From: Octopus vulgaris
Taxonomy: Eukaryota
Length of the DNA: 64,000 nt
Assembly: GCA_951406725.2 (NCBI GenBank)
Contig: OX597842.1
Coordinates: forward strand, 22,382,001-22,446,000
Direction of reading: 5' to 3'
Both the position numbers and the translations under genes were made by a program. This document shows, one piece after another, positions 20,586 to 52,113 of this stretch. Within the stretch, counting starts at the first letter, position 1. The number at the start of each line of letters is the position of its first letter. The notes below the pieces were generated by a model. That model worked only from the letters and a program-made list of their open reading frames with translations. It had not been told where the DNA came from and searched no databases.

Positions 20586-20595
20586 ATAATGTTTA

Positions 20596-22278: not shown

Positions 22279-22302
22279 TCTTTGCCAGGGGCAATATAAT
22301 CG

Positions 22303-28035: not shown

Positions 28036-28248
28036 AAGGTGGCAAGCGGGCGAAATGCGTGGCCGTATTTCGTCTGCCGCTACGTTCTGAGTTCAAATTC
28101 CGCCGAGGTCGACTTTGCCTTTCATCCTTTCGGGTCGATTAAATAAGTACCAGTTATGCACTGGGGTCGATGTAATCAACTTAATCCGTTTGTCTGTCCT
28201 TGTTGGTCCCTTCTATGTTTAGCCCCTTGTGGATAGTAAAGAAATAAG
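28036..28248 (+). mobile_element. SINE family B
   Basis: Family B consensus flanked by repeated AGTGTTAGTTGAAGG. Confidence 0.85.
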
Positions 28249-28519
28249 TGTTAGTTGAAGGCTACCAAACCTGACACACACAGACGACTTCAGCTTTTTG
28301 TATATATAGATTTCATCCCTAAGCAAGCATGTAATCGAGCCTAAATGGTTGAGTGTGTATGCATGGTCAAGAAGTTAAAGAGTTTGCTTCAGAATCCTGA
28401 AGGTCCTGGTTCAATTTTTAAAATACACTACATAAAATAGAGCAAGAGACAGTCTTCAGGAAAGTTGGGATAAAAAGTGTTAAAGTTCTACTTTTTTATC
28501 GCTTTTTCTAAAGAACATT

Positions 28520-28927
28520 TACTCTTACTCTTTACTATTTTTACTTGTTTCAGTCATTTGACTGCGGCCATGCTGGAGCACCGCCTTTAATCGAGCAACT
28601 CGACACCGGGACTTATTCTTTTGTAAGCCCAGTACTTATTCTATCGGGCTCTTTTGCCGAACCGCTAAATAACGGGGACATAAACACACCAGCATCGGTT
28701 GTCAAGCTATGCTAGGGGGACAAACACAGACACAAACACACACACGCATATATATATATATATACATATATACGACGGGCTTCTTTCAGTTTCCACCTAC
28801 CAAATCCACTCACAAGGCATTGGTCAGCCCGGGGCTATAGCAGAAGACACTTGCCCAAGGTGCCACGCAGTAGGACTGAACCCGGAACCATGTGGTTGGT
28901 AAACAAGCTACTTACCACACAACCACT
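28520..28927 (-). mobile_element. SINE family A
   Basis: Family A consensus. Confidence 0.88.
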
Positions 28928-29336
28928 TGACTAATTTTTTTGTGAATTGTCTGATTCTAATATTTCTAATAAAATATACAGACACGGAATTGTATATTTC
29001 TCATTTCAGATGGATCCCAAGTTAATGTCATAGATTCCTGTCAGGTTCCCAGAGATGAATTTATGAGATTACAACTCAGAGAATAAACCAAATGTACAAT
29101 ATGTCAGCAGAGACGTTGGAACATAGTCTTTGAATGTGGCCACGCCTCATGTAAAGAATGTGGAGAACAACTCAGTTATTGCCACATGTGTTGGTAACCT
29201 TTGAACAAAAGGATTGTTATACATTGACCATCTTTATTCTGGTTTTCTCTTTGCTTTATTGCTCGCCAATCTGAGAACTACCCCTGATCACATTAACCAG
29301 ACAGCCACGTCCACTCTGTATGAGTTGGAACTTTAA

Positions 29337-29919
29337 CCCCTTACCCAATAATTATTTTGAAAATAAATGTATTTTTTCAGACATATTTTTTAATTGTTTT
29401 ATTTTACCATGTTTTGAATGGTGATTTCGAGGTATATTTCAAACCTTATTTATTATGAATTTTAATTCAATAATATTGATTTTAAATTACCGCTGTGGGC
29501 AGAAACGAGTTAACCGGTTTTTTTCATAAATCATATTACTTTTACAAAAAATCATGTTATTTTATTTGGTTATCGACATGGTGGGGTTATAATATAAAGG
29601 TATAAAAAAAACAACGTAAAAACAAAGTGAATACTTCTATTCATAAAATGTGCCTTCCAACCCTTCGACTGTCTCCAGGTGACTAAATCATACTCGGTCT
29701 TCAATGCCTTACTCAAGTGAAAGGTGGCAGAAATCGTCACTGCCAGACGTATAAAGTGAGCGAATATACTCGTATATGTCAAAAACGAGTTTATAATAGA
29801 CAAAGGAACTCGTTTGCTGTCGATTTTGGTGAGTCTATTTTTTGACAAGTTAACTCGCCAGAGATAGAAAAAAACGATTTTGGTCAAAACGCATATATTC
29901 GTTTCTGCCGGGTAAGGGG
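29337..29919. mobile_element. piggyBac-like non-autonomous element
   Basis: TTAA-CCCCTTACCC ... GGGTAAGGGG-TTAA (TTAA at 29333-29336 and 29920-29923). Confidence 0.78.
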
Positions 29920-30108
29920 TTAACACGTTTCTGAACATTTTTACCAAACAAGAGAAACCTAAGAATATTTTAACAATATCATGAAGATTAATAAACCATT
30001 TGTGCATTTGTATCCTGTTCTTTTATAGCATGCACAAATGTGTGTGCTATAAAAATCACAAATAATGAGCAAAATTTGAAGCAGGTCTCTTTTTTTATTT
30101 TTCGTTTG

Positions 30109-30602
30109 AAAATCAAAATCGAAATCGATCAACATCAATGGAAATTGTAGCTGTGATACCAGTGCCGGTGGCACATAAGAGGACCATCCAAACGTGGCTG
30201 TTGCCAGCACTGCCCCAACTGGCCTCCGTGCCGGTGGCACGTAAAAAGCACCATCCGATCGTGGCCGTTTGCCAGCCTCGTCTGGCACCTGTGCAGGTGT
30301 CATGTAAAAAGCACCATCTGATTGGGGCCGTTTGCCAGCCTCGTCTGGCACCTGTGCAGGTGGCACGTAAAAAGCACCATCTGATTGGGGCCGTTTGCCA
30401 GCCTCGTCTGGCACCTGTGCAGGTGGAACGTAAAAAGCACCCACAACACTCACGGATTGGTTGGCGATAGGAAGGGCATCCAGCTGTAGAAACACTGCCA
30501 GATCGAACTGGAGCCTGGCGCAGCCTTCTGGCTTCCCAGATCCCGGTCGAACCGTCCAACCCATGCTAGCATGGAAAACGGACGTTAAACGATGATGATG
30601 AT
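30109..30602 (+). mobile_element. SINE-like family D copy with expanded internal tandem repeat
   Basis: Three tandem CCGTTTGCCAGCCTCGTCTGGCACCTGTGCAGGTG units; (GAT)n tail. Confidence 0.82.
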
Positions 30603-30693
30603 CGTAATGATGCAGTTTCCCTCCTGTGAATATGTCAGTTTAGGTTCATGTAACTACTACAAGATAAATTTACCACAGATGTACGATTTAGTG

Positions 30694-30921
30694 TACTCTC
30701 TTTACTCTTTTACTTGTTTCAGTCATTTGACTGCGGCCATGCTGGAGCACCACCTTTAATCGAGCAACTCGACCCCGGGACTTATTTTTTTGTAAGCCCA
30801 GTACTTATTCTATCGGTCTCTTTTGCCAAACCACTAAGTAACGGGGACATAAACACACCAGCATCGATTGTCAAGCAATGCTAGGGGGACAAACACAGAA
30901 ACACAAACACACACACTCATA

Positions 30922-30954
<33 letters not shown>

Positions 30955-31131
30955 ATATATATATATATACGACGGGCTACTTTTCAGTTTCCGTCTACCA
31001 AATCCACTCACAAGGCTTTGGTCGGCCCGAGGCAATAGTAGAAGACACTTGCCCAAGGTTCCACGCAGTGGGACTGGACCCGGAACCATGTGGTTGGTAA
31101 ACAAGCTACTTACCACACAGCCATGCCTGCG
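30694..31131 (-). mobile_element. SINE family A
   Basis: Family A consensus. Confidence 0.88.
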
Positions 31132-31139
31132 TACTGAAT

Positions 31140-32220
<1,081 letters not shown>

Positions 32221-32527
32221 TTTCCTTAGACATTAAATAAGTACCAGTTACGCACTGGAGTCGATATAATCGACTTAATCCATTTGTCTGTCCTTGTTTG
32301 TCCTCTTTGTGTTTAGCCCCTTGTGGGTAGTAAAGAAATAGGTATTACGAATCATTCCTCTTGCTGGGGGGGAATTGTACTACACCTATCAGATATAGCT
32401 GATATAAAATACTCACAAATATCCATTGATTTTGTATCATAAATAAAAATTTTAGAATCTTAACACACTTAACAATTCGACATTTTAAGCAAGATTTCAA
32501 AAAATAAAATAGATTTTATTCTTGTTA

Positions 32528-32710
32528 TCGTGACGTGTATTTGCCATTTAAATATGGCTAACCCCTAATAGGGGGGTGCTACTGTAGTTTGTAGCCCCAG
32601 GAGGACGCCTCCTCCAGCTGGCTTTAGAGGTGTCCTCCTGGGGCTACAAACTACAGTAGCATCCACCCTTAGGGATTAGCCATATTTAAATGGCAAATAT
32701 ACGTCACGAT
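32528..32710. mobile_element. Penelope-like terminal repeat in inverted arrangement
   Basis: TCGTGACGTGTATTTGCCATTTAAATATGGCTAA...CCCCAGGAGGAC versus GTCCTCCTGGGG...TTAGCCATATTTAAATGGCAAATATACGTCACGA; homologous to the 3308 and 21228 copies. Confidence 0.7.
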
Positions 32711-33231
32711 GTGTTGCAGCTACTTTTCATAACTCGCTCTAAGATTTATTATTCTTGTTACGTCTGTGCAGAAATAAAGTACGTTTCGCCATTTCTAATT
32801 CCGAGTCAGTTTTTTTAATTGCTATTTTATTTCCTGTGGAATCGCACCTTCGTTATAAATTACACTGAATTAAATGTTACAGCAGGTAAGATATGATGCA
32901 TACTTTTAGTAAAGATCGTTAAGGTGATCTTAAGTGTAAGTTTTTAATTGTCTGAATTACTAAATATTTAAACATAGACTTAACACTATCACTTGTTCGT
33001 TATGGATACGTACACTATGTTTGTTATTGCATATATGCATGTGTGCTCTACGATTGAATCTTGCCAATACCCACAAATACCTCATAAATCCTCCTTTGTT
33101 TTTATTTCGTTTTTTAGACGTTATAGTGTACTTTACGGAAGATTTGGCTGTGGTTGTTGTTTCTAGCAGTTCGGAAAATCATGTAAAGGTTTCGTCTTTG
33201 CTGATTTCCATGACAACAGACAGTTCCGAAC

Positions 33232-34076
33232 GGTTAATATAGGGCGTTACGTCTATCAGAAAATCAAAAAAAAAAATGTGTGTAATAGGTGTAAAACAAC
33301 TTCCTATGAACGAATAGGAAAAAAAAAAAATTCGCGCACGCGAAAGGGGGGTGGGGGAGAGGCCTCAGAAAATTCACATCGGGAAGTTCCGAAAGCGTCT
33401 GAGGGGCTGACCCGGGCACCAAAACAAAAAAAAAATAGTGTAATATGTGTAAAACAACTTGCTCTAAACGAATATGACAAAAAATGACAAACGAATATGA
33501 CAAAAAATGTACAAAAATACGGAGTTTATGATTCATGTGTGAGTGTGTGTTCTTGATACTCGTTTAGAACAAGTACTTTTACACCAATTACACTATTTTT
33601 TCTTAGTTTAAAGGCCGTGGACTGAAGATGTGAAATTTCCGAAGCCTCTCCCCCACCCCCTTTCGCGAGCGCGCATTTTTTCCATGATAGTTGTTTAGAG
33701 CAAGTTGTTTTACACCTATTACGCTGTTTTTGTTTTTGTTTTTGTGCCCGGTTCAGACGCTTTCGGAAATTCCCGATATAAATTTTCCGAGGCCTCTCCC
33801 CCACCCCTCTTTCGCGAGAGCGCATTTTTTTTGTCATATTCGTTTAGAGCAAGTTGTTTTACACATATTACACTATTTTTTTTTGTTTTGGTGCCCGGGT
33901 CAGCCCCTCAGACGCTTTCGGAACTTCCCGATGTGAATTTTCCGAAGCCTCTCTCCCACCCCCCTTTCGCGAGAGCGCATTTTTTTTGTCATATTCGTTC
34001 ATAGGAAGTTGTTTTACACCTATTACACACATTTTTTTTTTTGATTTTCTGATAATCGTAACGCCCTATATTAACC
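33232..34076. mobile_element. Foldback MITE, ~250-bp TIRs starting GG, 8-bp TSD
   Basis: TSD TTCCGAAC at 33224-33231 and 34077-34084; TIR GGTTAATATAGGGCGTTACG / CGTAACGCCCTATATTAACC; ~155-bp subrepeats inside. Confidence 0.9.
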
Positions 34077-34440
34077 TTCCGAACTACATTCTTTTATTCT
34101 TTCACTTGTTTCAGTCATTTGACTGCGGCCATGCTGGAGCACCGCCTTTAATCGAGCAACTCGACCCCGGGACTTATTCTTTTGTAAGCCTATTACTTAT
34201 TCTATCGGTCTCTTCTGTATAAATGTATTCTATTGGCTAAAATTACATAAATTTAAATGCTTGTGTTAATTATTATTATTATTAATTTGTAGAAAAAGAA
34301 AAGGCAGCTTGCTGGCAGAATCATTATCACGCCGTCTTACTGTTCTGAGTTCAAAATCTGCCGAGGTCGACTTCGCCTTTCATCCATCCGTTCAGTGTCT
34401 CTAAATCGGTCAAACTCCAGCAAAAAAAAAAAAAAAATAC

Positions 34441-34870
34441 GGCGATCTTTCGTCTCTAGTAGACATTTCCGTTGATTTCCGTAAATTTTTTTTTTCATAT
34501 ATATGGGCTTGCGGGAACTTTTGAAGTAATATACATACATATACACATACACCGAGTAAAAAATTTCAGTTATCTCTCTCTTTCACACATTACTCTCTCT
34601 GTCTCTTCACACACACTAACAAAAGCACTTCACTTACACAACATACTGTCTGTCTCCCACACCCCATCAAACACACACACGCACGCACACACACATGTCC
34701 ATCAATGCTCACATGCACGGTAACTTCAAAAGAACTTCCCTCGTCATACAATCGCTTTCTCTTAGTCTCTTTCGCTCTCATTACTTCAAAAGTTCCCGCA
34801 AGCCCATATGTAAAAAAAAAAAAATTTTACGGAAATCGACGGAAAGGTCTACTAGAGACGAAAGATTGAC
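34441..34870. mobile_element. MITE with ~90-bp TIRs (GGCGATCTTTCGTCTCTAGTAGAC)
   Basis: Inverted ends; near-identical copy in opposite orientation at 56006-56432. Confidence 0.88.
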
Positions 34871-35627
34871 AAAAAGGCAATAGGTGTAAAACAACATGTA
34901 GTAAAAGAATATGAAAAAAAAATGCGCGATGGCGAAGAGGGTGCGGGGGAAAGGACTCGGAAAAATATTTTTGCTGAATTTGAACGGTCTTTTATGCATG
35001 TTTATCTAGAGCTGTGGTTTTCAACCATTTCCTGCTATGGACCTCTTTTGGTTAGTATTTTATTTTGATGGACCCCGATTGCCATTCAATGTTTAAAAAC
35101 TCGTTTTATAGAAACTTCTTTCAAAATTCCTATTTTGTTTTTTACACATTAACTTGTGTAAGGTGAACTACATAAAATTTTAGATGATTAATTTTTAAAA
35201 TATGGATTACGTTTGATAAATTATAATTCATTTCTGTAGGAATATACTGAAATTTTCACTGTTTTTTCTCTTATTTTAAGATTTTTCTGTATTTTACATT
35301 TCAGATCAGATTATCAGAAAGGAATTGTTTACCTCTGTAACATCATCAACACCAGTTGTCTTTTAATGGCTAAAGAAAAATGTAATGGAACATATATAAC
35401 ACTTTACATAAGTCTACAGTGAATTAGGGTGAAATATTTCTTTTCAACTGGAATTTATATCAAGATATTTCTTATAAAACTTGGACAAATTTTCAAAGGA
35501 GTTTGCAGTATTTTCAGATATTGAGAAAGATTGCCAATGTTGGAAATATAGCAGAAGAAATATTAGAATCAAATATAACAACAAAAAGTAGAACATATAT
35601 ATTTATTGTGGTGAGAGAATATGAACA

Positions 35628-37067
35628 ATGGAGAATGAATTATTAGTGACCAAGGTTAGATTTAAATCACAGTTTAAAAGTATTGAATTTCCTGATGATA
35701 TAAAGAAAGAGAACACAAAGAGAGAAAGCTTATATCACTGTGATGTCTGTGGTAAGTCATTCTATAAGAAGTCCAATCTCACAACTCACAAATACATTCA
35801 TACAGGAGAAAAACCATATCGTTGTGATGTCTGTGGTAAATCATTCTCTCAAAATGTTCACTTAATTGGACACAAATACATTCATACAGGAGAGAAACCA
35901 TATCACTGTGATATCTGTGGGAAATCGTTTTCTCAAAGGTCTAGTTTAACTAATCACTTATATATTCACACAGGATTAAAACCATATCAGTGTGATATCT
36001 GTGGTAAAGCATTCTCTCAAAAGGAACACTTAACCAAACATAAACGTATCCATACAGGAGAAAAACCATATCAGTGTGATATCTGCAGCAAATCATTCTC
36101 TCAAAGATCTAGATTAACAAACCACTTACTAACACACACAGGAGTTAAACCATATCACTGTGATATCTGTGGTAAATCTTTTTCTCAAAATGAGCACTTG
36201 ACTAAACATAGACGTATTCATACAGGAGAAAAACCATATCAGTGTGATATCTGCAGTAAATCATTTTCTCAAAGATCTAGCTTAACTAACCACATGCATA
36301 TTCATACAGGAGGAAAACCATATCATTGTGATATCTGCGGTAAAACCTTCTCTCAGAATGAACAGCTGACCAAACATAAACGTATTCATACAGGAGAGAA
36401 ACCATATCATTGTGATATCTGCGGTAAAACCTTCTCTCAGAATGAACAGCTGACCAAACATAAACGTATTCATACAGGAGAGAAATCATATCAGTGTGAT
36501 ATCTGTGGTAAATCATTCTCTGAAAGTGGTTATTTAACTTCTCATAAACGAATTCATACAGGAGACAGACCGTATCAATGTGATATCTGTGGGAAATCAG
36601 TCTCTCAGACAAGTGAATTAACTAAACACAAACGTGTTCATACTGGAGAAAAACCATATTGCTGTGATATCTGTGGTAAATCATTCTCTGTAAGTACTGC
36701 CTTGACTAGACACAGACGTATTCATACAGGAGAGAAGCCATATCACTGTGATATCTGCAGTAAATCATTTTGCCAGAGTGGTGAATTAACTAAACACAAA
36801 CGTGTTCATACTGGAGAAAAACCATATTGCTGTGATATCTGTGGTAAATCTTTCTCTCAAGTAAACAGCTTAACTACACACAAACGTATTCACACAGGAG
36901 AAAAGCCATATCACTGTGATATCTGTGGTAAATCATTCCCTCAAAGAAATAACTTGACTATACACAAACGTATTCACACAGGAGAAAAGCCATATCACTG
37001 TGATATCTGTGGTAAATCATTTTCTTCAGGAAATCCTTTAAATATTCACAAACGCATACATATGTGA
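35628..37067 (+). CDS. C2H2 zinc-finger protein, 16 tandem fingers, no KRAB/BTB-type effector domain visible
   Basis: 479-aa ORF with a 36-aa leader and 16 canonical 28-aa fingers. Splice acceptor TTTTACATTTCAG ends at 35304; a degenerate finger follows the stop. Confidence 0.95.
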
Positions 37068-37310
37068 GGAAGACCATGTTGCTGTGATATCATTGGCAAA
37101 TGATTCTCTTCAAGAAGTCACTCAACTACACACATTTTTATTCCGATGAAAAAGTAATTGTTTTAACATTGACCCTTTAGCATTCGAGCCTGCTGTATCA
37201 GGCCAAAATATTTAACCAATTTTATGTGAAACTGGCCAGATCTGGCTTCTAACTAAACCCCTTCAATGTCATTCTAAATGTAAACAATCACATCATCAAA
37301 ATCCCAACAA

Positions 37311-37925
37311 TCATCATCATCATCATTGTCGTTTAACGTCCGCTTTCCATGCTAGCATGGGTTGGACAATTTGACTGAGGTCTGGCAAACCAGATGGCTG
37401 CACCAGACTCCAGTCTGATCTGGCAGAGTTTCTACAGCTGGATGCCCTTCCTAATGCCAACCACTCCTAGAGTGTAGTGGGTGATTTTACGTGCCACCGG
37501 CACGAGGGCCAGTCAGGTAGTACTGGCAACAGCTACACTCAATGGTGCTTTTTTTTTATGTGCCACCTGCACACCGGCACAAGTGCCAGTAAGGCAACAC
37601 TGGTAACGATCACACTCAAATGGTGCTTTTTACATGCCTCCAGCACAAACGCCATTTAGCCGCTCTGGCAACAATCACGCTCATATGGTACTCTTAGCAC
37701 TCCACTAGCATGGATGCCAGGAGAGGCTGGTAATGGCCATGATCGGTTGGTGCTTTTCATGTGCCACCGGTACAGAAGCCAGTCAAGGCGGTGCTGGCAT
37801 CGGCCACATTCAGATGGTGCTTTTTACGTGCCACCAGCACGGGTATCACAACTACAATTTCCATTTGGTTTTTATTTGATGTTGATGTACTTGACTCAGT
37901 AGGTCTCCTCAAGCACAGCAGGTCG
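37311..37925 (-). mobile_element. SINE-like family D copy
   Basis: (CAT)n followed by the reverse complement of family D. Confidence 0.8.
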
Positions 37926-38184
37926 CAAACTGGCCATATTAAACCAAATATTCAACTCATTTTATTTTCAGACAAACCAGATCCAGCCTCTTGCACCTAC
38001 CCTACAATGTCATTCTAAAACTAAGCTATCACATTATTGAAATCTGTAAACTACAAAATAATGTATGATTAATTGACAACAATATAAATAAATAAACATT
38101 ACATTTGACAAATTAATGTGAATCTAAAACGATTAAAGTTTGAATTATGGTAATTACCTTGTAACAAACATATTCTTTTTGTTT

Positions 38185-38756
38185 TTACTCTTTTACTTGT
38201 TTCACTCATATGACTGCGGCCATGCTGGAGCATCGCCTTTAGTCGAGCAAATCGAACCCAGGACTTATCCTTTGTAAGCCTAGTACTTATTCTATCGGTG
38301 TCTTTAGCCGAACTGCTAAGTTATAGAGACGTAACACACCAGCATCGGTTTCAAGAGATGTTGGAGGGACAAACACAGACACACAAACATATACACACAT
38401 ACATCATCATCATCATTTAACATCTGCTTTGCATGCTAGCATGGGTTGGATAATTTGACTGAGGACTGGTGTACCAGATGGCTGCACCAGGCTCCAATCT
38501 GATCTGGCAGAGTTTCTACAGCTGGATGCCCTTCCTAATGCCAACCACTCCGAGAGTGTAATGGTTGCTTTTACATGCTACCAGCACGAGGGCCAGGGCT
38601 TCTTTCAGTTTCCGTCTACCAAATCCTCTCACAAGGCTTTTGTCAGCCCGAGGCTATAGTAGAAGACACTTGCTCAAGGTGCCACGCAGTGGGACTAAAC
38701 CCAGAACCATGTGGTTGGTAAGCAAGCTACTTACCACACAGCCACTCCTGCGCCTA
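38185..38756 (-). mobile_element. SINE family A interrupted by a family D fragment (~38403-38598)
   Basis: Family A tail, then (CAT)n-led family D segment, then family A head. Confidence 0.8.
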
Positions 38757-39109
38757 TTTTTGTGGAGTAAATTATTTTTTTTTACCTTCTCTTTGGTATT
38801 TTTTATCATTTACTTGTTAGTCATTTGACTGTGGCCATGCTGGGGCACTGCCTTGAACTTTTAGACAAATGAATTGACCCCGACGCTTATTTTTGTTTTA
38901 AAACCTGGTACTTTATTAGTTTCTTTTGCTGAAACCACTAAGCTACAGGAATGTAAACACATCTGCATTGGTTATCAAGCAGTGTGGTGGTTGGGGGGAC
39001 AAACACAGTCACAAAGATACACACACAAACATTATTATTCCAACCAGGAAACCCTGGGTAGCTGTATTTAAATGATTTGTGGGTTTTTTATTTTCTTTAC
39101 CCTCTTCTA

Positions 39110-39675
39110 TTGGGTTGTCCGGAAAGTTTGTGCCGATTTATAGTAGCTTACCTTTCGACTTATTTTAGAACATGGTTGAGTCCATAAAATAGGATTTGAC
39201 TACACCTCCATTTAGAGCACAGTTTACGCTATCTTTTCGTGGAAGAAGGTTTATGTTCCTATAACCTGTGTTAATTCTGTAACCCTTTAAAATGGAAGAT
39301 AAGAAAGTTCATTTTCGGCACTTGATGCTATGGGAACCAGACAAAAATTGCTGCAGCTAGGCTGGGATGTGTTACCCCACCCTCCATATTCACCAGATAT
39401 TGCTCCTTCGGATTTCTGCTTATTCAGGTCTCTGCAGAATAGTCTTAATGGTAAAAAATTCAATTCCTTGGATGACTTAAAAAGATACCTTGGTGAATTC
39501 TGTGCCATGAAACCACCTCAATTTTGGGAAGAGGGTATTTTCAAGTTAAAGGAAAGATGGAGATGCATTGCGCAACAAAATGGTTCATATTTGGTTGATT
39601 AAAAATGTAATGGCAAGTATTTATTGACCTTTTTCTTTCCTTTAAAAATCGACACAAACTTTCCAGACAACCCAA
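39110..39675 (+). mobile_element. Internally deleted mariner transposon with transposase C-terminal remnant
   Basis: TA TSDs and TIRs TTGGGTTGTCCGGAAAGTTTGTG / CACAAACTTTCCAGACAACCCAA. ORF 39330-39602 contains LGWDVLPHPPYSPDIAPSDF (mariner DD34D third-Asp motif). Confidence 0.93.
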
Positions 39676-39696
39676 TACTTGTTGAAGAATTACACC

Positions 39697-40018
39697 GGAA
39701 ATTGCAGCTGTGATACCAGTGCCGGTGGTACATAAGAAAACCATCCGAACGTGGCCGTTGCTGGCACCTCCCCGACTGGCCTCGTGCCAGTGGCATGTAA
39801 AAACCACCATCCGATCATGGCCGTTGCCACCCTCGTCTGGCACGTAAAAAGCACCCACTACACTCATGAAGTGGTTGCCGTTAGGAAGGGCATCCAACCG
39901 TAGAAACTCTGCCAGATCAGACTGGGCCTGGTGCAGCCTTCTGGCTTCCCAGACCCCAGTTGAACCGTCCAACCCATGCTAGCATGGAAAGCGAACACTA
40001 AACAATGATGATGATGAT
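39697..40018 (+). mobile_element. SINE-like family D copy
   Basis: Family D body and (GAT)n tail. Confidence 0.78.
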
Positions 40019-40235
40019 ATATATGACATGCTTCTTTTAGTTTTTGACAGGTTGGTATCAAAAGGGTTTATAGAATCTAAGATTGGACAGTATGATGTGG
40101 AGGACATGATGTTGCCCATGCAGCATGTTCTCATTTTCATGTCACTGATGAATCCAGTGGAGGGTGGGAAAGCCAATGTTTCAGACAGAGTCCTTCGATG
40201 AAAGGACAGAAAATAATGCCAAGGCATGTCATATA

Positions 40236-40448
40236 CGAGGGGTTGCTGGAAAGCTCCTAGCTTAAAGGGTACTACAAAAGGCCTGATTGGAGGCCCAACC
40301 TTTCAAGTTTTTATACAGGGCTTAGAAAAACTGAAGGACTACTGCAATGTGTGTGAAGCTGAGAGGGGAATATGTTGAATAAAATCATAATTAATGGATT
40401 TGTCTTGTATTTTCTTTTATTCAAAGCCAGGAACTTTTCAGCACCTCG
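40236..40448. mobile_element. Mariner-like MITE
   Basis: TA-CGAGGGGTTGCTGGAAAG ... CTTTTCAGCACCTCG-TA. Confidence 0.78.
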
Positions 40449-40460
40449 TATATATACATG

Positions 40461-40504
<44 letters not shown>

Positions 40505-40506
<2 letters not shown>

Positions 40507-40810
40507 CGTGATCACGTGACCGACCAGACCATCAGATGTTGTTACACATCACTGGTCACAATGCACTTTGCATTGTTTTAGCCTTCAAATGGCGCCACCC
40601 CGTTGGCTAAGCGAGCAAGCCAACAGAAGAAAGAATGAGAGAAAGTTGTGGCGAAAGAGTACAGCAGGGATCACCATCACCCCCTGCCGGAGCCTCATGG
40701 AATTTTAGGTGTTTTCACTCAATAAACACTCACAACGCCCGGTCTGGGAATCGAAACCGCGATCCTACGACCGCGAGTCCACTGACCTAACCACTGGGCC
40801 TTTGTGCCTC

Positions 40811-40812
<2 letters not shown>
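40505..40812 (-). mobile_element. tRNA-derived SINE family C in a (TA)n tract
   Basis: Reverse complement of the 43180-43472 copy; CACGTGA tail. Confidence 0.85.
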
Positions 40813-40880
<68 letters not shown>

Positions 40881-40896
40881 GTATATATATATATAC

Positions 40897-41361
40897 ATAC
40901 GAGCAAAACGCCCCCCTCCCCCCCCCCCGTTCAATGGACGGTGCTAAGTTGTCAAACATTTAAACCAAATTTTCTCAAAACAACTTGTCCGACCGTCCCA
41001 TAGGCATCCCCTTTGAGAAACACTGATTTAACCTAAATTTGAGACACCAGCAAAAGAAAAAAGCTTTCCATTACAATCCACAAGAAGTTTATTTGTCTCA
41101 TCCTCACATGATCATTGGTAGCATGTCATCTGTTTGCGTCCATTGTAACACCAAGAGGTGGCCAGCATGCATACAAATGCACGTTCCCATGGCTTTATCG
41201 ATCACATCCTCACCTGGAATCGATTTTTGTAATTTTTTCAAGACTTATACACGCCCTGATACCGTCGGTATCTACATATCAAATTTGAGTGCAATCGGAT
41301 GGAGGTTGCCCGAGATTCTAGAAGACACACAGACAGACACAATGGATTTTATATAATAGAT
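40897..41361 (+). mobile_element. Non-autonomous Helitron-like element carrying a RepHel N-terminal fragment
   Basis: AFHYNPQEVYLSHPHMIIGSMSSVCVHCNTKRW resembles the Helitron RepHel N-terminal CxxC region. The end AAATTTGAGTGCAATCGGATG...ACAGACAGACAC...TTTTATATAATAAGAT resembles non-autonomous Helitron/Helentron ends. Confidence 0.6.
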
Positions 41362-41372
41362 ATATACATACA

Positions 41373-41536
41373 TAGGCGCAGGAGTGGCTGTGTGGTAAGT
41401 AGCTTGCTTACCAACCACATGGTTCCGGGTTCAGTCCCACTGCGTGGCATCTTGGGCAAGTGTCTTCTGCTATAGCCCCGGGCTGACCAATGCCTTGTGA
41501 GTGGATTTGGTAGAAGGAAACTGAAAGAAACCTGTC

Positions 41537-41574
<38 letters not shown>

Positions 41575-41765
41575 GTTTGTCCCCATAGCATTGCTTGACA
41601 ACCGATGCTGGTGTGTTTATGTCCAAGTCACATAGCGGTTCAGCAAAAGAGACCGATAGAATAAGTACTGGGCTTACAAAGAATAAGTCCCGGGGTCGAT
41701 TTGCTCGACTAAAGGCGGTGCTCCAGCATGGCCTCAGTCAAATGACTGAAACAAGTAAAGGAGTA
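41373..41765 (+). mobile_element. SINE family A
   Basis: Full family A consensus. Confidence 0.88.
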
Positions 41766-41976
41766 AGTGTTGATGAATGGTTCAATTATTAAATTCAAGC
41801 TTCTCTGCTGGTTCCTCAACAATTACAATGGGATTTTGCTCCACCAGGATTTGTAGTACGTCCTTGTCAAGCTCTACAGATCTTCCAGGACAAGGCTCAT
41901 CGTCTCCGCAGTATTTTCTGGCGTCACCGTTAACACTGCCTTATGCTTACTGCCTGATTCCCATATACTGCTCTCT

Positions 41977-42703
41977 TCACTCTTTTACTCGTTTCGGTCA
42001 GTTGACTGCGGCCATGCTGGAGCACCGCCTTTAGTCGAGCAACTCGACCCCGGGACTTATTCTTTGTAAGCCCAGTACTTATTCTATCGGTCCCCTTTGC
42101 TGAACCGCTAAGTAACGGGGACATAAAAACACCAGCATCGGTTATCAGGCCATGCTAGGGGGACAAACACACACATGCATATATATATATATACATATAT
42201 ACGACGGGCTTCTTTCAGTTTCCGTCTACCAAATCCACTCACAAGGCATTGGTCGGCTTGGGGCTATAGTAGAAGACACTTGCCCAAGGTGCCACGCAGT
42301 GGGACTGAACTCGGAACCATGTAGTTGGTAAACAAGCTACTTACCACACAGCCACTCCTGTGCCTATATACGATGGGCTTCTTTCAGTTTCCGTCTACCA
42401 AATCCACTCACAAGGCATTGGTCAGCTTGGGGCTATAGTAGAAGACACTTGCCCAAGGTGCCACGCAGTGGGACTGAACCCGGAACCATGTAGTTGGTAA
42501 ACAAGCTACTTACCACACAGCCACTCCTGTGCCTATATACGATGGGCTTCTTTCAGTTTCCGTCTACCAAATCCACTCACAAGGCATTGATCAGCTCGGG
42601 GCTATAGTAGAAGATACTTGCCCAAGGTGCCACGCAGTGGGACTGAACCCGGAACCATGTGCTTGGTAAACAAGCTACTTACCACACAGCCACTCCTGCA
42701 CCT
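41977..42703 (-). mobile_element. SINE family A with three tandem 5' heads
   Basis: ~169-bp head unit repeated at ~42203, 42371 and 42541. Confidence 0.88.
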
Positions 42704-43179
42704 TAATACTGCATTAATATTCCTTGTTGTTGTTGCCTTTATTGCACTCATAAATTAAAATATGCTGAATATCCTCTTTTGAAAAAAATAATTGTTAAAA
42801 TCGAACTGCACTCTATAAAATTTGCATTGAGGATAAATACAAGGCAAAGTTACTACCTGCTTTTATAGCAAGCTGATGCAGGTAGTTTATCCTATCCCCC
42901 TCTGCAATGGAAAAATCTGCATCATATATGGTAGGACCCCATATATATATATATATATCATCATCATCATCATCATCGTTTAATGTCCACTTTCCATGCT
43001 AGCATGGGTCGGTTGGTTCGACCAGGGTCTGGGAAGCCAGGTGGCTGCACCAGGCTCCAGTCTGATCTGGCAGTGTTTCAACAGCTGGATGGCCTTCCTA
43101 ATGCCAACCACTCCATGAGTGTAGTGGGTGCTTTTTACGTGTCACCGGCACAGGAGCCAGAGGATATATATATATATAT

Positions 43180-43472
43180 GTGGAGGCGCAATGGCCTAGT
43201 GGTTAGGGCAGCGGACTCGCGGTCGTAGGATCGCGGTTTCGATTCCCAGACCGGGCGTTGTGAGTGTTTATTGAGCAAAAACACCTAAAAGCTCCACGAG
43301 GCTCCGGCAGGGCGTGGTGATCCCTGCTGTACTCTTTCACCACACTTTCTTCTGTTGGCCTGCTCGCTTAGCCAGCGGGGTGGCGTCATTCGAAGGCTAA
43401 AACAATGCGAACGCATTGTGAACAGTGATGTGTAACTACATCTGATGGACTGGTCGGTCACGTGACGTGATG
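43180..43472 (+). mobile_element. tRNA-derived SINE family C
   Basis: TGGCCTAGTGGTTAGGGC A-box and GGTTTCGATTCCC B-box in a tRNA-like head; GTCACGTGA tail; inserted in (TA)n. Confidence 0.88.
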
Positions 43473-43488
43473 ATATATATATATATAT

Positions 43489-44031
43489 ACTCTTTCACTT
43501 GTTTCAATCATTTGACTGTTGCCATGCTGGAGCACCACCTTTAGTCGAGCAAATCGACCTCCAGGACTTATTCTTTGTAAGCCTAGTACTTATTCTATCG
43601 GTCTCTTTTGCCGATCCGCTAAGTTACGAGGATGTAAACACACCAACATCGGTTGTCAAGCGATATTGGGGAAACAAACACAGACACACAAACATATACA
43701 CACGCATACATATATATATATATACATATACACGACAGGCTTCTTTCAGTTTCCGTCTACCAAATCCACTCATAAGGCTTTGGTCAGCCCGAGGCTATAG
43801 TAGAAGACTCTTACCCAAGTGCCATGCAGTGGGACTGAATCCAGAACCGTGTGGTTGGTTAGCAAGCTACTTACCACACAGCCACTCCCATATATATATA
43901 TATATAAATGCGGTTTCAGTTTCCATTTACCAAATCCACTCACAAGGCTTTGGTTAGCCCAAGGCTATAAATAGAAGACATTTGCCCAAGGTGCCACGCA
44001 GTGGGACTGAACCCAGAACCGTGTGGTTGGG
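43489..44031 (-). mobile_element. SINE family A plus second head
   Basis: Family A consensus. Confidence 0.85.
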
Positions 44032-44378
44032 AATCCGGCTTCGGAGCAAGAATGGCCTTCAACCATTTCTATGATATGAAATGCAAAGGTTGTATTGCCC
44101 AAGCTAGGATGCTGTTAAATGTTTTAATCTTTTCTGTTATCTTGGTGCGGTACTGTGGATAAATTTGAGACTTTAGCTCTTATTTCTAGCAAGTGGATGC
44201 TTGTTTAAGCATCCTAACACTTCGTACAACTTAATAATTCATAGCTATTTAATGCTATTGCACCTGCGATCCACCTATGTCACTGCTGGTGATATCATCA
44301 ATTTTAAAATTTATCCACAGATGATATGAACAGTAGCGACATCTGATTTCAAATCTCAGTATTTGAATGTTTTGCTTA

Positions 44379-44416
<38 letters not shown>

Positions 44417-44420
44417 CATA

Positions 44421-44455
<35 letters not shown>

Positions 44456-45084
44456 CAAAATATATATATATATATTGGGCCACTTGGTGTTGAATAGATA
44501 TACTATTAAATTAGTATCTAATTCTCACACCTTATTAATTAATTAATTATATATATATATATATATATAAATATATATATATATACAAATATACAGGAAT
44601 GTGACGAAAGAACTCTGGTTGAAATAAGATTAAGATTAATGTAAAAAATGAATAACACTGAAGCAAATTAACACCAAATATATAGTGCGTGTGTTTTTAT
44701 TGGCTAAACTGGCAACATGACCATTCCGAAATATAACAATATAAATATATATATATACTCGTATATATATATATATTTGTGTGTGTGTGTGTGTGTGTGT
44801 GTATGCATGTATATATACGAGGTGTTGAACAGTTCCTGGTTTTGAATAAAAGAAAATACAAGACAAATCCATTAATTATTATTTTATTCAATATATTCCC
44901 CTCTCAGCTTCACACACAGTTTCACATAAAATAGGTTAAATATTTTGGCCTGACACAGCAGGCTCAAATGCTAAAGGGTTAAATGTTAAAACAATTACTT
45001 TTTCATAGGAATAAAAATGTGTGTAGTTGAGTGACTTGTTGAAGAGAATCATTTGCCAATGATATCACAGCAACATGGTCTTCC

Positions 45085-46356
45085 TCACATATGTATGCGT
45101 TTGTGAATATTTAAAGGATTTCCTGAAGAAAATGATTTACCACAGATATCACAGTGATATGGCTTTTCTCCTGTGTGAATACGTTTGTGTATAGTTAAGC
45201 TGTTTACTTGAGAGAAAGATTTACCACAAGTACTGCAATGATATGGTTTCTCTCCTGTATGAATACGTTTGTGTATAGTTAATTCACCACTTTGGCAAAA
45301 TGATTTACTGCAGATATCACAGTGATATGGCTTCTCTGCTGTATGAATACGTCTGTGTCTAGTTAAGGCACTACTTACAGAGAATGATTTACCACAGATA
45401 TCACAGCAATATGGTTTTTCTCCAGTATGAACACGTTTGTGTTTAGTTAATTCACTTGTCTGAGCGACTGATTTCCCACAGATATCACATTGATACGGTC
45501 TGTCTCCTGTATGAATGCGTTTATGAGAAGTTAAGTGACCACTTTCAGAGAATGATTTACCACAGATATCACACTGATATGGTTTCTCTCCTGTATGAAT
45601 ACGTTTATGTTTGGTCAGGTGTTCATTCTGAGAGAAGGTTTTACCGCAGATATCACAATGATATGGTTTTCCTCCTGTATGCATATGCATGTGGTTATTT
45701 AAGCCAGATCTTTGAGAAAATGATTTACTGCAGATATCACACTGATATGGTTTTTCTCCTGTATGAATACGTCTATGTTTAGTCAAGTGCTCATTTTGAG
45801 AAAAAGATTTACCACAGATATCACAGTGATATGGTTTAACTCCTGTGTGTGTTAGTAAGTGGTTTGTTAATCCAGATCTTTGAGAGAATGATTTGCTGCA
45901 GATATCACACTGATATGGTTTTTCTCCTGTATGGATACGTTTATGTTTGGTTAAGTGTTCCTTTTGAGAGAATGCTTTACCACAGATATCACACTGATAT
46001 GGTTTTAGCCCTGTGTGAATATATAAGTGATTAGTTAAAGTAGACCTCTGAGAAAACGATTTCCTACAGATATCACAGTGATATGGTTTCTCTCCTGTAT
46101 GAATGTATTTGTGTCCAATTAAGTGAACATTTTGAGAGAATGATTTACCACAGACATCACAACGATATGGTTTTTCTCCCGTATGAATGTATTTGTGAGT
46201 AGTGAGATTGGACTTCTTATAGAATGACTTACCACAGACATCACAGTGATATAAGCTTTCTCTCTTTGTGTTCTCTTTCTTTATATCATCAGGAAATTCA
46301 ATACTTTTAAACTGTGATTTAAATCTAACCTTGGTCACTAATAATTCATTCTCCAT
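45085..46356 (-). CDS. C2H2 zinc-finger protein, 14 tandem fingers; inverted paralogue of 35628-37067
   Basis: 423-aa ORF with the same leader and first two fingers at protein level. Flanking non-coding DNA is also homologous (35199-37233 vs 46786-44921). Confidence 0.95.
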
Positions 46357-46786
46357 TGTTCATATTATCTCACCACAATAAATATATATGTTCTACTTTT
46401 TGTTGTTACATTTGATTCTAATATTTCTTCTGCTATATTTCCAACATTGGCAATCTTTCTCAATATCTGAAAATACTGCAAACTCCTTTGAAAATTTGTC
46501 CAAGTTTTATAAGAAATATCTTGATATAAATTCCAGTTGAAAAGAAATATTTCACCATAATTCACTGTAGACTTATGTAAAGTGTTATATATGTTCCATT
46601 ACATATTTCTTTAGCCATTAAAAGACAACTGGCGTTGATGATGTTACACAGGTAAACAATTCCTTTCTGATAATCTGATCTGAAATGTAAAATACAGAAA
46701 AATCTTTAAAATAAGAGAAAAAACAGTGAAAATTTCAGTGTATTCTTATAAAGATGAATTATAATTTATCAAATGTAATCCATATT

Positions 46787-48090
46787 GAGGTGGAAGACGC
46801 ATCATGGCTTAGAAAGAAGGATGACCACAACCACATCAATGTGGCCGAAATGGATGCTGTGTTGAATGTTGTCAACCTAGCATTGAGATGAGGACTGCAA
46901 ACTGTTGAGGTCCAGATTGATTCTGCCTCAGTGGTCACCAACCGGAAGAGGATTTGTATGAAAGGGGCCATGGAAATGGTGATCAAGCATTGTCTGGGAA
47001 TCCTGAAGGAGCTAGCTGCCAAGTTCACCCTACAACTGCATGCAGTGTTTGTGCCCTCGGAAAAGAATAAGGCAGATGTTCTAACCAGAGTGAAAAAAGA
47101 ATTGGTTGGAAACAGGAGAGGGGTTTGTTGGTTGGAGGACACAGAATTAAGGAGGCTGCACAGTATGTGGAACTGTGACAGGTGCCAATTGGCTGATCCT
47201 GCCCCGGACACACTTGAACCAGGAAACATTCAGATAGAGGAAGAATGAAAGATGCTAGCTATTGATGCGACATGCTATCGGGGAAAGGTGTACCTTTCAA
47301 TGGTCGACTGTGAACCGGGACAAATGACTATATGGAGAAAAATTAGGGTGGAGACTGTTGTCGAAGTCACAGAGGTCCTGTATGCAGTGTTTTTGGAAAG
47401 GGGGCTGGTAGACAAGCTATTGATGGATAACAGCTCAGTTTTTTGCTCAGAGCTGCTGAGAGAGATGCTTGGAAGATGGAGTATGGGAAAACTTATTCAG
47501 AGCTGTATGCAGGCCAGGTAGAATTGGGATTGTGGAGCGGTACCACTGTATGATTTAAGCCATGGCTGAGAAGGGATGAATCTCCCCTATAGGGGCAGTC
47601 TTCTTGTATGATATGTTGCCCAGGGTAGGACAAGCCAAAGAGTCGGTCCTGCACAGGGCTGTAATCCGATACAAATGGAGACACCCGAGCATGGTGCCAC
47701 AGCGGCACAATCATGGTGCAGCACCCTGAATAATGTGTCAATGGATGTCTTAGATATTCGAAGGGTGATTAGGTCTTCCGATGACGAAGGGTAGGGAAAA
47801 GGCGACTCCGAGACCCTACGGAGATCTCTAAGGGAACGTTCCCAGCCCCAGGTAGATGGATGATTACAAGACAGAACAAGGAGCAGTGATCGTTAGATCG
47901 GGGTAGGGTGGGGGGCATGTGGTGGAAGGAAGAATGGAAGCGTCGAGAGATGACGGCAGCGAGTGAGAAGAAAAATTTTCCCCTGCGTTTGGTTTTTTCC
48001 TGGGGATGCGAGCTGTGACAGACGCCAGTGGTGAAGATACTAAGGTCATATTTAACACGGGTGAAGAATTGATCAATCTGTCAGCGGTAC
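46787..48090 (+). mobile_element. Degenerate Ty3/Gypsy LTR-retrotransposon 3' part (RNase H-like, integrase, PPT, start of 3' LTR)
   Basis: EDASWLRKKDDHNHINVAEMDAV and LAIDATCYRGKVYLSMVDC...LLMDNSSVF (integrase D,D core), with stops. Purine tract GGGGTAGGGTGGGGGG followed by TG at 47918. Confidence 0.8.
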
Positions 48091-48095
48091 CTGAG

Positions 48096-48462
48096 GAGGC
48101 GAGCTGGCAGAAACGTTAGCACACCGGGCGAATTGCGTAGCCGTATTTCGTCTGCCGTTTCGTTCTGAGTTCAAATTCCGCCGAGGTCAACTTTGCCTTT
48201 TATCCTTTCATGGTCGATAAATTAAGTACCAGTTTCGCACTGGGGTCGATGTAATCGACTTAATTCCTTTGTCTGTCCTCTCTGTGTTTAGCCCCTTGTG
48301 GGTAGTAAAGAAATAGGTATTTCGTCTGCCGCTCGTTCTGAGTTCAAATTCCGCTGAGGTTGACTGTGCCTCTCATCCTTTTGGGGTCGATTAAATAAAT
48401 GCCAGTTACACACTGGGGTCAATATAATCGACTTAGTCCATTTCTCTGTCCTTGTTTGTCCC
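48096..48462 (+). mobile_element. SINE family B partial dimer
   Basis: Family B consensus. Confidence 0.85.
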
Positions 48463-49795
48463 TTGAGTATAATATGCAGGGGATTTTTAGGGGGCTGTAC
48501 CACTGAAAAACCTAAACCTTGAGTATAATATCCACCCCTTCTCTAACTTGAGTCAAGGAGGTCTATATAACGTCCTTGGTTTGTACAAATGTATACAGTA
48601 ACGTCCTTTATTATTATTGTATATATAACATAATGCAAGCGTGTAGCTTTTTTGTGCATTTTGTTTGCAGAAAATAAAGAAATAACAGTAATAACGTTTA
48701 ATAAATGTTGCTTACTGCAAGTTATGGATGATTCTTTTATGACTTCATTGCTTTCAGGCTTAGCTTAAGGTATTTTCGCGCCTGACATCACAAAATGCGT
48801 CTGAATAAACATTGCCAGACATCAAATAGAGTCTCGGACATTGCTCAGGAAATAATTTTCATTTTTAACTTCGTATATAGTACGCTCTAGGGATTTTGAT
48901 CTTTAAATTTTGGGAAAAAAATGCGGATTATACTCGAAGATTTACGGTATATATATATATAGTTGAATAAGGGTAGAAATTGATATTAATCAATTAAAAC
49001 CAGTGGCCTAGCATATTAAAAAAATATGAAGATTAAAATATTTTTTACATACAAAATTTAAAGGACTGACCACTAAAAGTGGACGGTCAATATGCTAGAT
49101 ATAGACGTCAATGTGCTGAGTTTTCTCTTGAGAACACATTCTTGGTGGAAAATAGCGATTTTGACGTCTATATCTAGCATATTGACCGTCCACTTTTAGT
49201 GGTCAGTCCTTTAAATTTTATATATATATATACATATATATATGTGATGTATATCAGTATGTATGTGTGCGCACCGAATTTTATTCATGATATAATTGTA
49301 ATCTACACCACCTGAAAATTTGATTTTAAAATATTCATTTCACTCTAAGTTATGAGAAAGCAAAGACAGGTGTGCAATAGTTTTGCAGGTAGGCCTGTTT
49401 AATTACAATTAATTACATTTGAGGATAGACAATAAAAAAACTCGGGAACTTTCACGTTTGACAGGAAATTTCAATTAACCCATATTCACAGAAATTTACT
49501 AAAAATAAAATATATGTTATATTTTACCTGTTACAATATATAACTCAGTGTTCCGTGAAAAATGTAATTATATTACACCAAAGTGCAATTAACTGGAGAT
49601 TAAAGTCAACAAAATTTTTGGGAAAAGTAAAAATCGACTGGGAACAAACGAAACGTACTAAATATCCGGAAGTTGTCACCTGGTATGTCTTAGCCTTCAT
49701 TTGAATATTCTGTGGTGTCTGGGGAGAATATCTTTATTATGATCATGGTGATCTTACATAAAATGGGGCAAAACAGGACAAACAAAAGACAGGTA
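48462..49795. repeat. Segment duplicated in inverted orientation at 55940-57780
   Basis: Colinear reverse-complement match that includes the pogo-like MITE, a palindromic repeat and unique AT-rich sequence. Confidence 0.92.
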
Positions 49796-49811
49796 CTAGT
49801 CGTGTAGACTG

Positions 49812-51111
49812 GATCCGGTGCGCGCAGACGAGCATCCGTGCTAGCTAGTCGTAGGTAGTAGATCCTACAGCGACTTGCGTATGCAAATGAGCTGATTGGC
49901 GCAACATTGCAAAAACTAAGTTAATAGCGAGCCCCTACTGAAGCTTAAAAAATATTTTTCAACGATATACGGTGTATATTATTTTAAAGACAATTGCGGT
50001 TTTTTTTTCATTACAAAACAATTAGAAGCATTGAAAAAAAGCAAAACAACCTTAAGGACAGTCAAACTTTTTTTTTTCAAAGTAGACCACTACAGGCGAC
50101 AATTCACTTGTGTTTACTTTGAATAGCTACGGAAAACTTCGTTAACCATTCAGCTATGCTCGTTCTCTTTCAACTGGAATTTAAGCCCTGACCAACCCTA
50201 AACTATTAGACATTTTGGTCGTGGCCATCCCGCTTTGTTGTAAATCCAATACTGCATTGTTCAGTTTGACTTAAAAAAAAATTCGGCTGCTATTTCTAAC
50301 AGCTCGGTGGAAGATATCTCTTGACCGAAGTTGTACAAGGTCTGTGTTTGCTCCTTGTTTTCAGTTTCTCCAAAGACCCAACTGAACTCTCGTCTTTAAC
50401 TTCAGCTAAAGAGTTCCCAGTCCCAAGACTGCCCTGGCCGTGCAGACCTGATCAAAGGAGTTTATTTTTAACCAGACGTAAAGTAACCCTTTACTTCATA
50501 GAAATGTTTTATTTCTACGTGGGGGAAAATTTGGTTACTATAAGTTTACATTGAAGAGACTTGGTCGTTGACAGGAGCCTCATAAGTTAACGCAGTGAAC
50601 CATTTCATACGAGGCAATTAGTGTTATCTTCGTCTGTGATCTGTCACTGTACTACCCTTCCTCTATCTGCCTGGCAACTAAATTCAGACCCCACGTTGTT
50701 GGCTTGTCACCAGTAAACGATTTTCCTGTTGAAGCCTACAGTAAAATTACCTTGTTGGGGAGGGGTTAAGCCAATTTTTAAAAACTTTTTTTTTGAATTT
50801 TCATGCTGCAGTTTGCCGTAGCTATTCAAAGTAAACACAAGTGAATTGTCGCCTGTAGTGGTCTACTTTGAAAAAAAAATGTTTGACTGTCCTTAAGGTT
50901 GCTTTGCTTTTTTTTCAATGCTTCTAATTGTTTTGTAACGAAAAAAAAACGCAATTGTCCTTAAAATAATATACACCGTATATCGTTGAAAAATATTTCC
51001 TAAGCTCCATTAAGGGCTCGCTATTAACTTAGTTTTTGCAATGTTGCGCAAATCAGCTCATTTGCATACGCAAGTCGCTGTAGGATCGACCACCTACGAC
51101 TGGCTAGCGCG
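49812..51111. mobile_element. Foldback DNA-transposon-like element with ~295-bp TIRs; right tip replaced by a SINE
   Basis: 49841-50137 is reverse-complementary to 50811-51111; the terminus GGATCCGGTGCGCGC is related to the 22303-22587 MITE. Confidence 0.85.
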
Positions 51112-51421
51112 TAACTGGTACTTAATTTATCGACCCTGAAAGGATGAAAGGCAAAGTCGACCTCGGCGGAATTTGAACTCGCAACGTAACGCAGACGAAA
51201 TACCTATTTCTTTATTACCCACAGAGCGGACAAACAAGGACAGACATAGGTATTAAGTCGATTACATCGACCCCAGTGCGTAACTGGTACTTAATTTATC
51301 GACCCTGAAAGGATGAAAGGCAAAGTCGACCTCGGCGGAATTTGAACTCACAACGTAACGGCAGACGAAATACCGCTAAGCATTTCGCCCGACGTGCTAA
51401 CGTTTTGCCAGCTCACCGCCT
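51108..51421 (-). mobile_element. SINE family B partial dimer
   Basis: Reverse complement of family B. Confidence 0.85.
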
Positions 51422-52113
51422 TATCGTAAAACATTGTATAAGGAAATGGTTGTATAAAACAGGAACAAAGTGAAAAGAAAACCAAGTTTCAGTTTTACCT
51501 TGTATTTCTATACTTCGGGATGAGGGCCAGTTTTTCCGAACTTTTGCAAGAGCAGGAGTTGGACGAAACCATTCCTCCAATGGGTGTGATCTGAATTGGT
51601 GTGGAAGGCAGAAGAACGATGACATGCGCAGACTGGTCTGCGTGCGCGCGTGCTTCGTGTTCTTTCTTCCTCCTGGTCGAGGCTGATCTCAATTTGCTCA
51701 ATTTTCTTTATTCGTAAAAATGTTCGTTTTCTATGTTTGTGTTTGCATGCTTTCGTTTCTCATTGTGTCTACATTTTTTTTGCTGTCCTGTACGCATATA
51801 TGCATGTATATATACATATATATGTAGGTATATAAATATATGTATGTATATATGCATATATATATATGTGTGTGTGTGTGTATCTGTGTATATGCATGCA
51901 TGTATGTGCATGTAAATATATGTATATGTGTTTTTGTGTGTCACATGTTTTGCAAGCTTACATGACCAGCTTACTCAAAGTCACTGAATTGAATTGGACT
52001 TTTCAGGCAATAAAATTGCAAACGAATTTCACGCTTGAATAAATGAATACAATTACACACTGAATACATTTGGTGAAAATGGGACTGGAGGAGATATTAA
52101 ATAAGAAACATAA

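Follow-up and report, generated by a model that had tools for sequence, protein, structure and literature searches.

An inverted pair of poly-zinc-finger genes in Octopus vulgaris and the rate of change at its DNA-contacting residues

A stretch of 64,000 nt from Octopus vulgaris (assembly GCA_951406725.2, contig OX597842.1, positions 22,382,001 to 22,446,000; hereafter the window, in which the coordinates below are counted from its first base) contains two closely related genes for C2H2 zinc-finger proteins (ZNFs), termed here copy A and copy B, in inverted orientation. A preliminary description, made from the sequence alone, stated that the two proteins differ preferentially at the helix positions that contact DNA and by whole fingers, and proposed that the array was retuning its target, possibly in an arms race with transposons. 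The locus thus raises the question of whether its contact residues change faster than the neutral rate. The analysis presented here indicates that A and B are an inverted whole-gene duplicate with a conserved scaffold, in which the contact residues probably change at approximately the neutral rate, through point mutation and in-register recombination of 84-bp fingers, as part of ordinary birth-and-death evolution.

Divergence between copies A and B

Both genes encode Krueppel-type tandem fingers (C-x2-C-x12-H-x3-H, with TGEKP-type linkers and matches to PF00096 and PF13465 in A and B). The counts given initially, 16 fingers in A and 14 in B, were reproduced, as was the protein-level identity of the leader and of fingers 1, 2, 4, 6 and the last. 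The coding regions differ at 33 of 1272 aligned nt, resulting in 17 amino-acid differences. All eight contact changes originally listed are present, at +3 (fingers 3, 5, 7, 8 and 10), +2 (finger 12) and +6 (fingers 13 and 14) of the recognition helix, but that list omitted the other nine differences, all of which are at non-contact positions: G>R in finger 3; T>N at +5 and I>M at +10 in finger 7; S>A at -2 in finger 11; G>A in the linker of finger 12; V>I at +10 in finger 13; and C>H, D>S and I>T in finger 14. No amino-acid change between A and B was observed at -1. Finger 13 of B begins with HCST (45229-45240, reverse strand), a cluster of changes seen in no other of 1729 sampled fingers.

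Tests on the pair were performed with kappa values of 1-3, with or without the recombined tracts described below. The claim that divergence favours contacts holds in comparison with non-contact positions, since the enrichment is beyond chance (P 0.002-0.004), but contacts do not significantly exceed the synonymous rate. The ratio of non-synonymous to synonymous rates (dN/dS, or omega) at non-contact positions was 0.21-0.36, significantly below 1 (P 0.001-0.03), and that at contacts, relative to synonymous sites, was 1.1-2.1 (P 0.14-0.49). With the non-coding divergence of the pair (63 of 1736 nt, 3.6%) as the reference, contact omega was 1.8 (P 0.09), falling to 1.5 (P 0.23) once the recombination tracts were removed. 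The contact enrichment thus mostly reflects constraint on the framework, the contacts themselves being near-neutral, and +3 shows a nominal excess that hints at selection.

Recombination within the arrays explains or is compatible with the +6 changes, but not the five +3 changes. In A, 70 nt across fingers 13 and 14 are identical to fingers 11 and 12, while the non-sister tracts next in length lie within single fingers and do not exceed 31 nt. The 70-nt tract carries K at +6 and V at +10 of finger 13, two synonymous changes and the Cys codon with which finger 14 starts; K>I at +6 of finger 13 is therefore ascribed to intra-array conversion. The extra finger 15, correctly described as restricted to A, is not a recent copy of a neighbour (10 of 69 nt differ from finger 14, and 6 of 69 from the closest of the 2382 sampled fingers), so that its loss from B is more economical than a gain in A. 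In finger 13 of B, all seven informative sites in the middle agree with finger 14 of A, and the last, the +6 codon next to a 60-nt identical tract, agrees with finger 15. Because the T>I letter is that of finger 15 and lies next to this tract, a single deletion would explain both the missing finger and T>I; a deletion junction is the likely source of this change at +6 of finger 14, and a point mutation is possible. The duplicate of finger 8 reported as exact does exist, but the two units match at 83 of 84 nt and finger 9 has the linker TGEKS. For each of the five +3 changes and for the +2 change, neither the arrays nor the sampled genes supply a donor for at least one of the alleles; these changes are therefore considered to be point mutations.

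The history of the pair may be reconstructed from these data. Duplication of exon 1, intron and coding exon, of which both copies retain the structure, would have come first, with the fold then kept by purifying selection (framework omega 0.2-0.4). The point changes at +3 in five fingers would be mostly tolerated drift, with some adaptive share possible. Fingers 13 and 14 of A carry the converted tract, fingers 11 and 12 being the probable donors; one finger was presumably lost in B; and finger 8 of A would have been duplicated after its H>Q change, as the single difference in 84 nt suggests. The predicted outcome, from general knowledge of C2H2 proteins, is an altered binding preference. A and B are likely to be transcribed DNA-binding proteins (the binding being predicted) with somewhat different targets.

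Contact residues in other young pairs

The genome searched comprises 2.8 Gb in 227 contigs, and the sample of the family comprises approximately 1.7 Mb picked around ZNF matches, which is non-random and dominated by the contig C27. In all, 171 open reading frames (ORFs) and 2382 fingers were called, a first round having used 101 of 123 ORFs. An intactness filter dropped 33 of the 171 ORFs (broken, partial or short) and retained 138 intact genes, among which were 20 independent young pairs. Pooled tests were limited to one pair per gene and to aligned fingers with no more than 5 differences in 69 nt, and the focal pair was excluded. Broken ORFs (32 edges) gave a contact omega of 1.9 and were of no use as neutral controls.

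Pooled contact omega for the 19 other pairs was 1.51 (bootstrap 1.00-2.21), with the strongest value at -1 (2.06), and pooled framework omega, without a site designated x, was 0.45. Site x, a non-contact site between the Tyr and the first Cys, had an omega of 2.39 (2.2-2.6), above that of every contact position, and its synonymous rate was raised in young fingers. This is the outcome expected if variable sites undergo conversion, and site x could be either a hot spot of conversion or a position in contact with the backbone. For the seven pairs with heterogeneous arrays like those of the focal pair, contact omega was 1.13, with a single +3 change. Alleles lacking a sampled donor gave omega values of 0.8-0.9 under strict settings and 1.4-1.6 under loose ones. 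Synonymous G>A and C>T were two to three times as frequent as A>G and T>C; base-matched transitions numbered 56 observed versus 49 expected, and 34 versus 24 (ratios 1.1-1.4).

These results must be weighed against the proposal that positive selection after the duplication retuned the binding site, chiefly via +3, with either transposons or gene regulation as the agent. Several observations tell against purely near-neutral contacts. At +3 alone, omega is 3.3-4.4 (P 0.008-0.03, or 0.03-0.13 after correction for four positions); the +3 changes include two G/C transversions and two parallel replacements by Gly, and their number, five, is the highest single-position count among the 20 pairs. The pooled contact omega (1.5-1.6 across the family) is nominally above 1 (P 0.006; in the finger network P is as low as 1e-8), and at +3 an omega of 2.05 (P 0.005) was obtained with the looser of the donor-free tests. 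In addition, both Y and H of finger 10 occur in contigs of a second organism (see below), and this difference may therefore be old and kept. The donor-free +3 alleles likewise fit selection, as do the sites significant in vertebrate poly-zinc-finger expansions, which concentrate at -1, 3 and 6 (PMC2604467), and the preference of octopus ZNFs for transposable element (TE) sequence predicted in PMC10547256.

On the other side, +3 was picked post hoc from four positions in each of 20 pairs, amounting to 80 looks, and the other pairs include five counts of four at one position (three at -1, one at +2 and one at +6); the maximum at +3 is weak evidence for these reasons. Position -1 is unchanged, the +6 changes are compatible with recombination, and a non-contact site, x, exceeds all contact positions in omega. 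Moreover, S>T and S>G exchange small residues, which read bases only weakly. Positive selection of this kind is accordingly regarded as possible but rather unlikely. It is doubtful that effector-less octopus arrays are under diversifying selection at contacts in the manner of vertebrate KRAB-ZNFs, with five parallel +3 replacements retuning the Q-H-K / Q-x-N repeat of the array.

The +3 A>G changes, both in TAG, were also considered as hard-wired RNA-editing sites, which is unsupported: at contacts in the family, A>G equals T>C (0.033 versus 0.035), and TAG>TGG was seen once in 130. Clusters of long, internally homogenised ZNF arrays, with a median nearest-finger distance of mostly 3-5 in 69 nt, were observed at C27:24.17-24.36 Mb and C27:24.49-24.56 Mb. 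These are more PRDM9-like than the focal pair and are better candidates for tests of selection.

Gene structure and transcription

The coordinates of the pair are presented in Table 1. Each copy of the inverted duplicate consists of a non-coding first exon and a single coding exon; with exon 1 included, the duplication extends beyond the region initially described. Homology around the coding exon extends from 35199 to 37234 in A and from 46786 to 44916 in B, and the introns (15.2 and 4.8 kb) align only at their ends. The loose end of an RNA-like contig matches 51501-51528 (reverse strand) exactly and 20078-20105 (forward strand) with two mismatches. Since both matches finish at AG|GT and the exon-1 stretch has only two matches genome-wide, each copy is considered a complete two-exon gene; a promoter-less duplicate of the exon was rejected, exon 1 being present for both. 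A larger inverted arm, via 34441-34868 and 56008-56432, was also rejected, as the stretch is a high-copy repeat.

Table 1. Features of copies A and B in the window
Feature	Position	Strand	Remarks
Copy A exon 1 / promoter-proximal region (non-coding)	19953..20107	+	donor GT at 20108
Copy A intron, 15.2 kb, repeat-filled	20108..35304	+	acceptor AG at 35303-35304; RNA-like contigs begin at 35302-35303
Copy A 5' untranslated region within exon 2	35305..35627	+	in-frame stop directly upstream of ATG
ORF A, 479 aa: 35-aa leader and 16 C2H2 fingers	35628..37067	+	
Five +3 codons differing between A and B (35943, 36111, 36279, 36363, 36531)	35943..36533	+	
Fingers 8 and 9 of A, young tandem copies matching at 83/84 nt; Q at +3 in both	36321..36488	+	
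70-nt tract of A, identical to 36613-36682 (fingers 11/12); intra-array conversion	36781..36850	+	
Finger 15 of A, missing in B; flanked by 60-nt in-register identical tract (36878-36937 = 36962-37021), likely crossover site	36909..36992	+	
3' sequence common to A and B	37068..37234	+	contigs from four small runs extend into A-only flank
Copy B exon 2, to limit of homology	44916..46679	-	
ORF B, 423 aa: same leader and 14 C2H2 fingers	45085..46356	-	
Copy B intron, 4.8 kb, repeats and integrase remnant	46680..51498	-	
Copy B first exon, non-coding	51499..51653	-	exact match to spliced loose end of RNA-like contig

RNA-like contigs came from four small sequencing runs, three of which are marked as RNA by guess and one of which is of unknown kind; such contigs may be mosaic. 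In these runs contigs begin at the acceptor (35303) and leave the intron uncovered, and in each of the four one contig extends into the 3' flank found only in A. Copy A's own exon 1 was not seen spliced among the RNA-like contigs. The spliced B-type exon 1, together with the contigs that enter the A-only flank, makes it likely that both copies are transcribed. At 37208, the contigs of three of the four RNA-like runs, from both organisms, have G where the two genomic copies, like the DNA contigs from runs X1 and X3, have A; this is a candidate editing site or a shared single-nucleotide polymorphism.

A redundant duplicate might also be decaying under relaxed constraint, in which case the contact changes would reflect loss of binding and not retuning. 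The Gly gained at +3 in two fingers of B, its G>R change and its unusual HCST finger start, the TGEKS linker in A, and the sampled ORFs dropped as broken, partial or short would fit such decay. Both ORFs are intact, however, with their C, C, H, H, F, L and Y positions all unchanged, non-contact omega is significantly below 1, and the RNA-like contigs include both the spliced B-type exon 1 and the A-only 3' flank, which renders decay of either copy improbable.

That the copies are uncollapsed haplotypes, as their high identity could suggest, is very improbable and largely refuted: the copies are inverted, their first exons are 6.5% apart, their introns differ in length, and both types of junction occur in other runs. 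The right junction of A is bridged by contigs in X1, X3 and X4 and its left junction in X3, and 35199 is the precise end point of B-type contigs in X1, X4 and X6, of which X6 is labelled as a second organism. One DNA run, not all of them, may be the assembly's own source and hence not independent. In X3, X4 and X6, shared-arm contigs are 1.3-1.9 times as deep as a single-copy contig nearby, which is a hint only. The duplication is apparently older than the split of the two organisms, if timed from the contigs. Contigs drop alleles: X3 has only G at 36111, and X4, X5 and X7 have only C at 36365, where X1 retains the A-type letter.

Other features were noted around the pair. A and B converge, their 3' ends lying about 8 kb from each other (35199-46786), and read-through would make a 2-kb hairpin. 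Between the arms, 39303-39599 (forward strand) resembles, by eye, a mariner-like transposase remnant, without a Pfam match; the integrase-core remnant in the B intron (47249-47518, forward strand) has a weak rve match; and the A intron holds a broken ZNF pseudogene on the opposite strand (31150-32232, reverse strand). The 260-kb block around the window contains 18 ORFs with at least five C2H2 fingers. A 12-finger ZNF at 11884-13602 (forward strand) has a C-terminus made up of a 33-bp (11-aa) tandem repeat in about 17 units. On the same strand, a stop-free frame of 1205 aa (5731-9345) is preceded by frames of 328 aa (3937-4920) and 315 aa (4883-5827) that overlap out of frame; those of 1205 and 328 aa lack Pfam matches. 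By eye, the feature looks repeat-like and may represent a frameshifted or split beta-propeller gene.

Leader, putative targets and comparison with known systems

The preliminary view of the pair as young, KRAB-less paralogues that gain or lose whole fingers is borne out. Neither KRAB nor any other Pfam family was found in the leader (about 35-36 aa), which an in-frame stop just before the ATG delimits, and a PR/SET domain is absent, the proteins consisting of leader and fingers only. A 33-aa leader (MENEL..C..E....IDFPDD), shared among ZNF genes of several contigs (e.g. L067:6802-6903), occurs in 47 of the 123 ORFs sampled, and all named database matches of its profile are ZNFs of Octopus sinensis, O. 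bimaculoides and O. vulgaris. The focal pair, which lies in a ZNF cluster and has the family leader, belongs to this C2H2 family expanded in the octopus lineage. A KRAB- or FiNZ-like effector role for it was rejected: the ratio of non-synonymous to synonymous differences (pN/pS) was 1.02 over 23 independent leader pairs, with no codon-position signature. The same leader has putative SUMO- and SIM-like motifs. Protein database searches gave no match for the focal leader alone and found neither of the exact proteins A and B; with the finger region they returned long vertebrate arrays and retrieved no orthologues.

A crude motif scan from a general recognition code (KGANNA, three times) matched only two (TGA)n microsatellites; the motif is of low information and the matches are no proof of binding. 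The (TGA)n/(ATC)n microsatellites, at 1362-1385 and 42958-42975, head an abundant repeat and agree with the site crudely predicted for the core fingers, which is no more than a lead. By that code, the alternating Q-H-K / Q-x-N finger repeat could presumably read the (TGA)n heads of abundant octopus repeats.

Contact-biased divergence with gain and loss of fingers is the standard pattern of poly-zinc-finger genes (Emerson and Thomas 2009; PMC2604467). In the vertebrate KRAB/poly-zinc-finger paralogues treated there, contacts likewise vary more than framework, and finger number differs in all but one of 24 expansions, compared with 17 of the 19 other young octopus pairs (some through truncation). 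The significant vertebrate sites (-1, 3 and 6) survive removal of converted genes, whereas in the octopus pair, which has no KRAB, position -1 does not vary, the +6 changes are explained by or fit recombination, and a nominally high value is confined to +3. The zebrafish FiNZ-ZNFs and the metazoan TE-ZNF model (Wells et al. 2023; PMC10547256) similarly concern lineage-specific KRAB-less expansion; predicted TE preference and high contact-site entropy are given there for a species set including octopus, and dN/dS for zebrafish only. The neutral octopus leader differs in this respect from the conserved accessory domain of FiNZ-like ZNFs.

The PRDM9 zinc-finger minisatellite is an array reshaped by in-register conversion and unequal crossing-over. 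The octopus pair shares the in-register reshaping but has no PR/SET domain, and its arrays are not homogenised in the manner of PRDM9, since non-sister fingers within an array differ at about 9-28 of 69 nt (the 8/9 duplicate excepted).

The pair also resembles the clustered, effector-less poly-C2H2 genes of the octopus and coleoid expansion, the size and clustering of which are described in PMC9068888. Counts, trees and expression are given in that paper and in PMC12513265, and no codon-level test of contact residues was seen in the parts consulted; nor was a dN/dS test of contact residues in cephalopods found in the open-access literature, subscription papers and supplements being outside this scope. 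An arms race with transposons as the driver of the cephalopod expansion is called an open question in PMC12513265, and diversifying contact selection, if true, would give it codon-level support.

Taken together, the data make it likely that this pair reflects the ordinary poly-zinc-finger turnover of its family and not a demonstrated arms race with transposons, for which none of the tests made gave support; alone, it is one typical example among many. With the other young pairs, it does illustrate a trap: conversion in register raises omega wherever sites vary, whether or not they contact DNA. Together these pairs provide a ready test set for the arms-race question.

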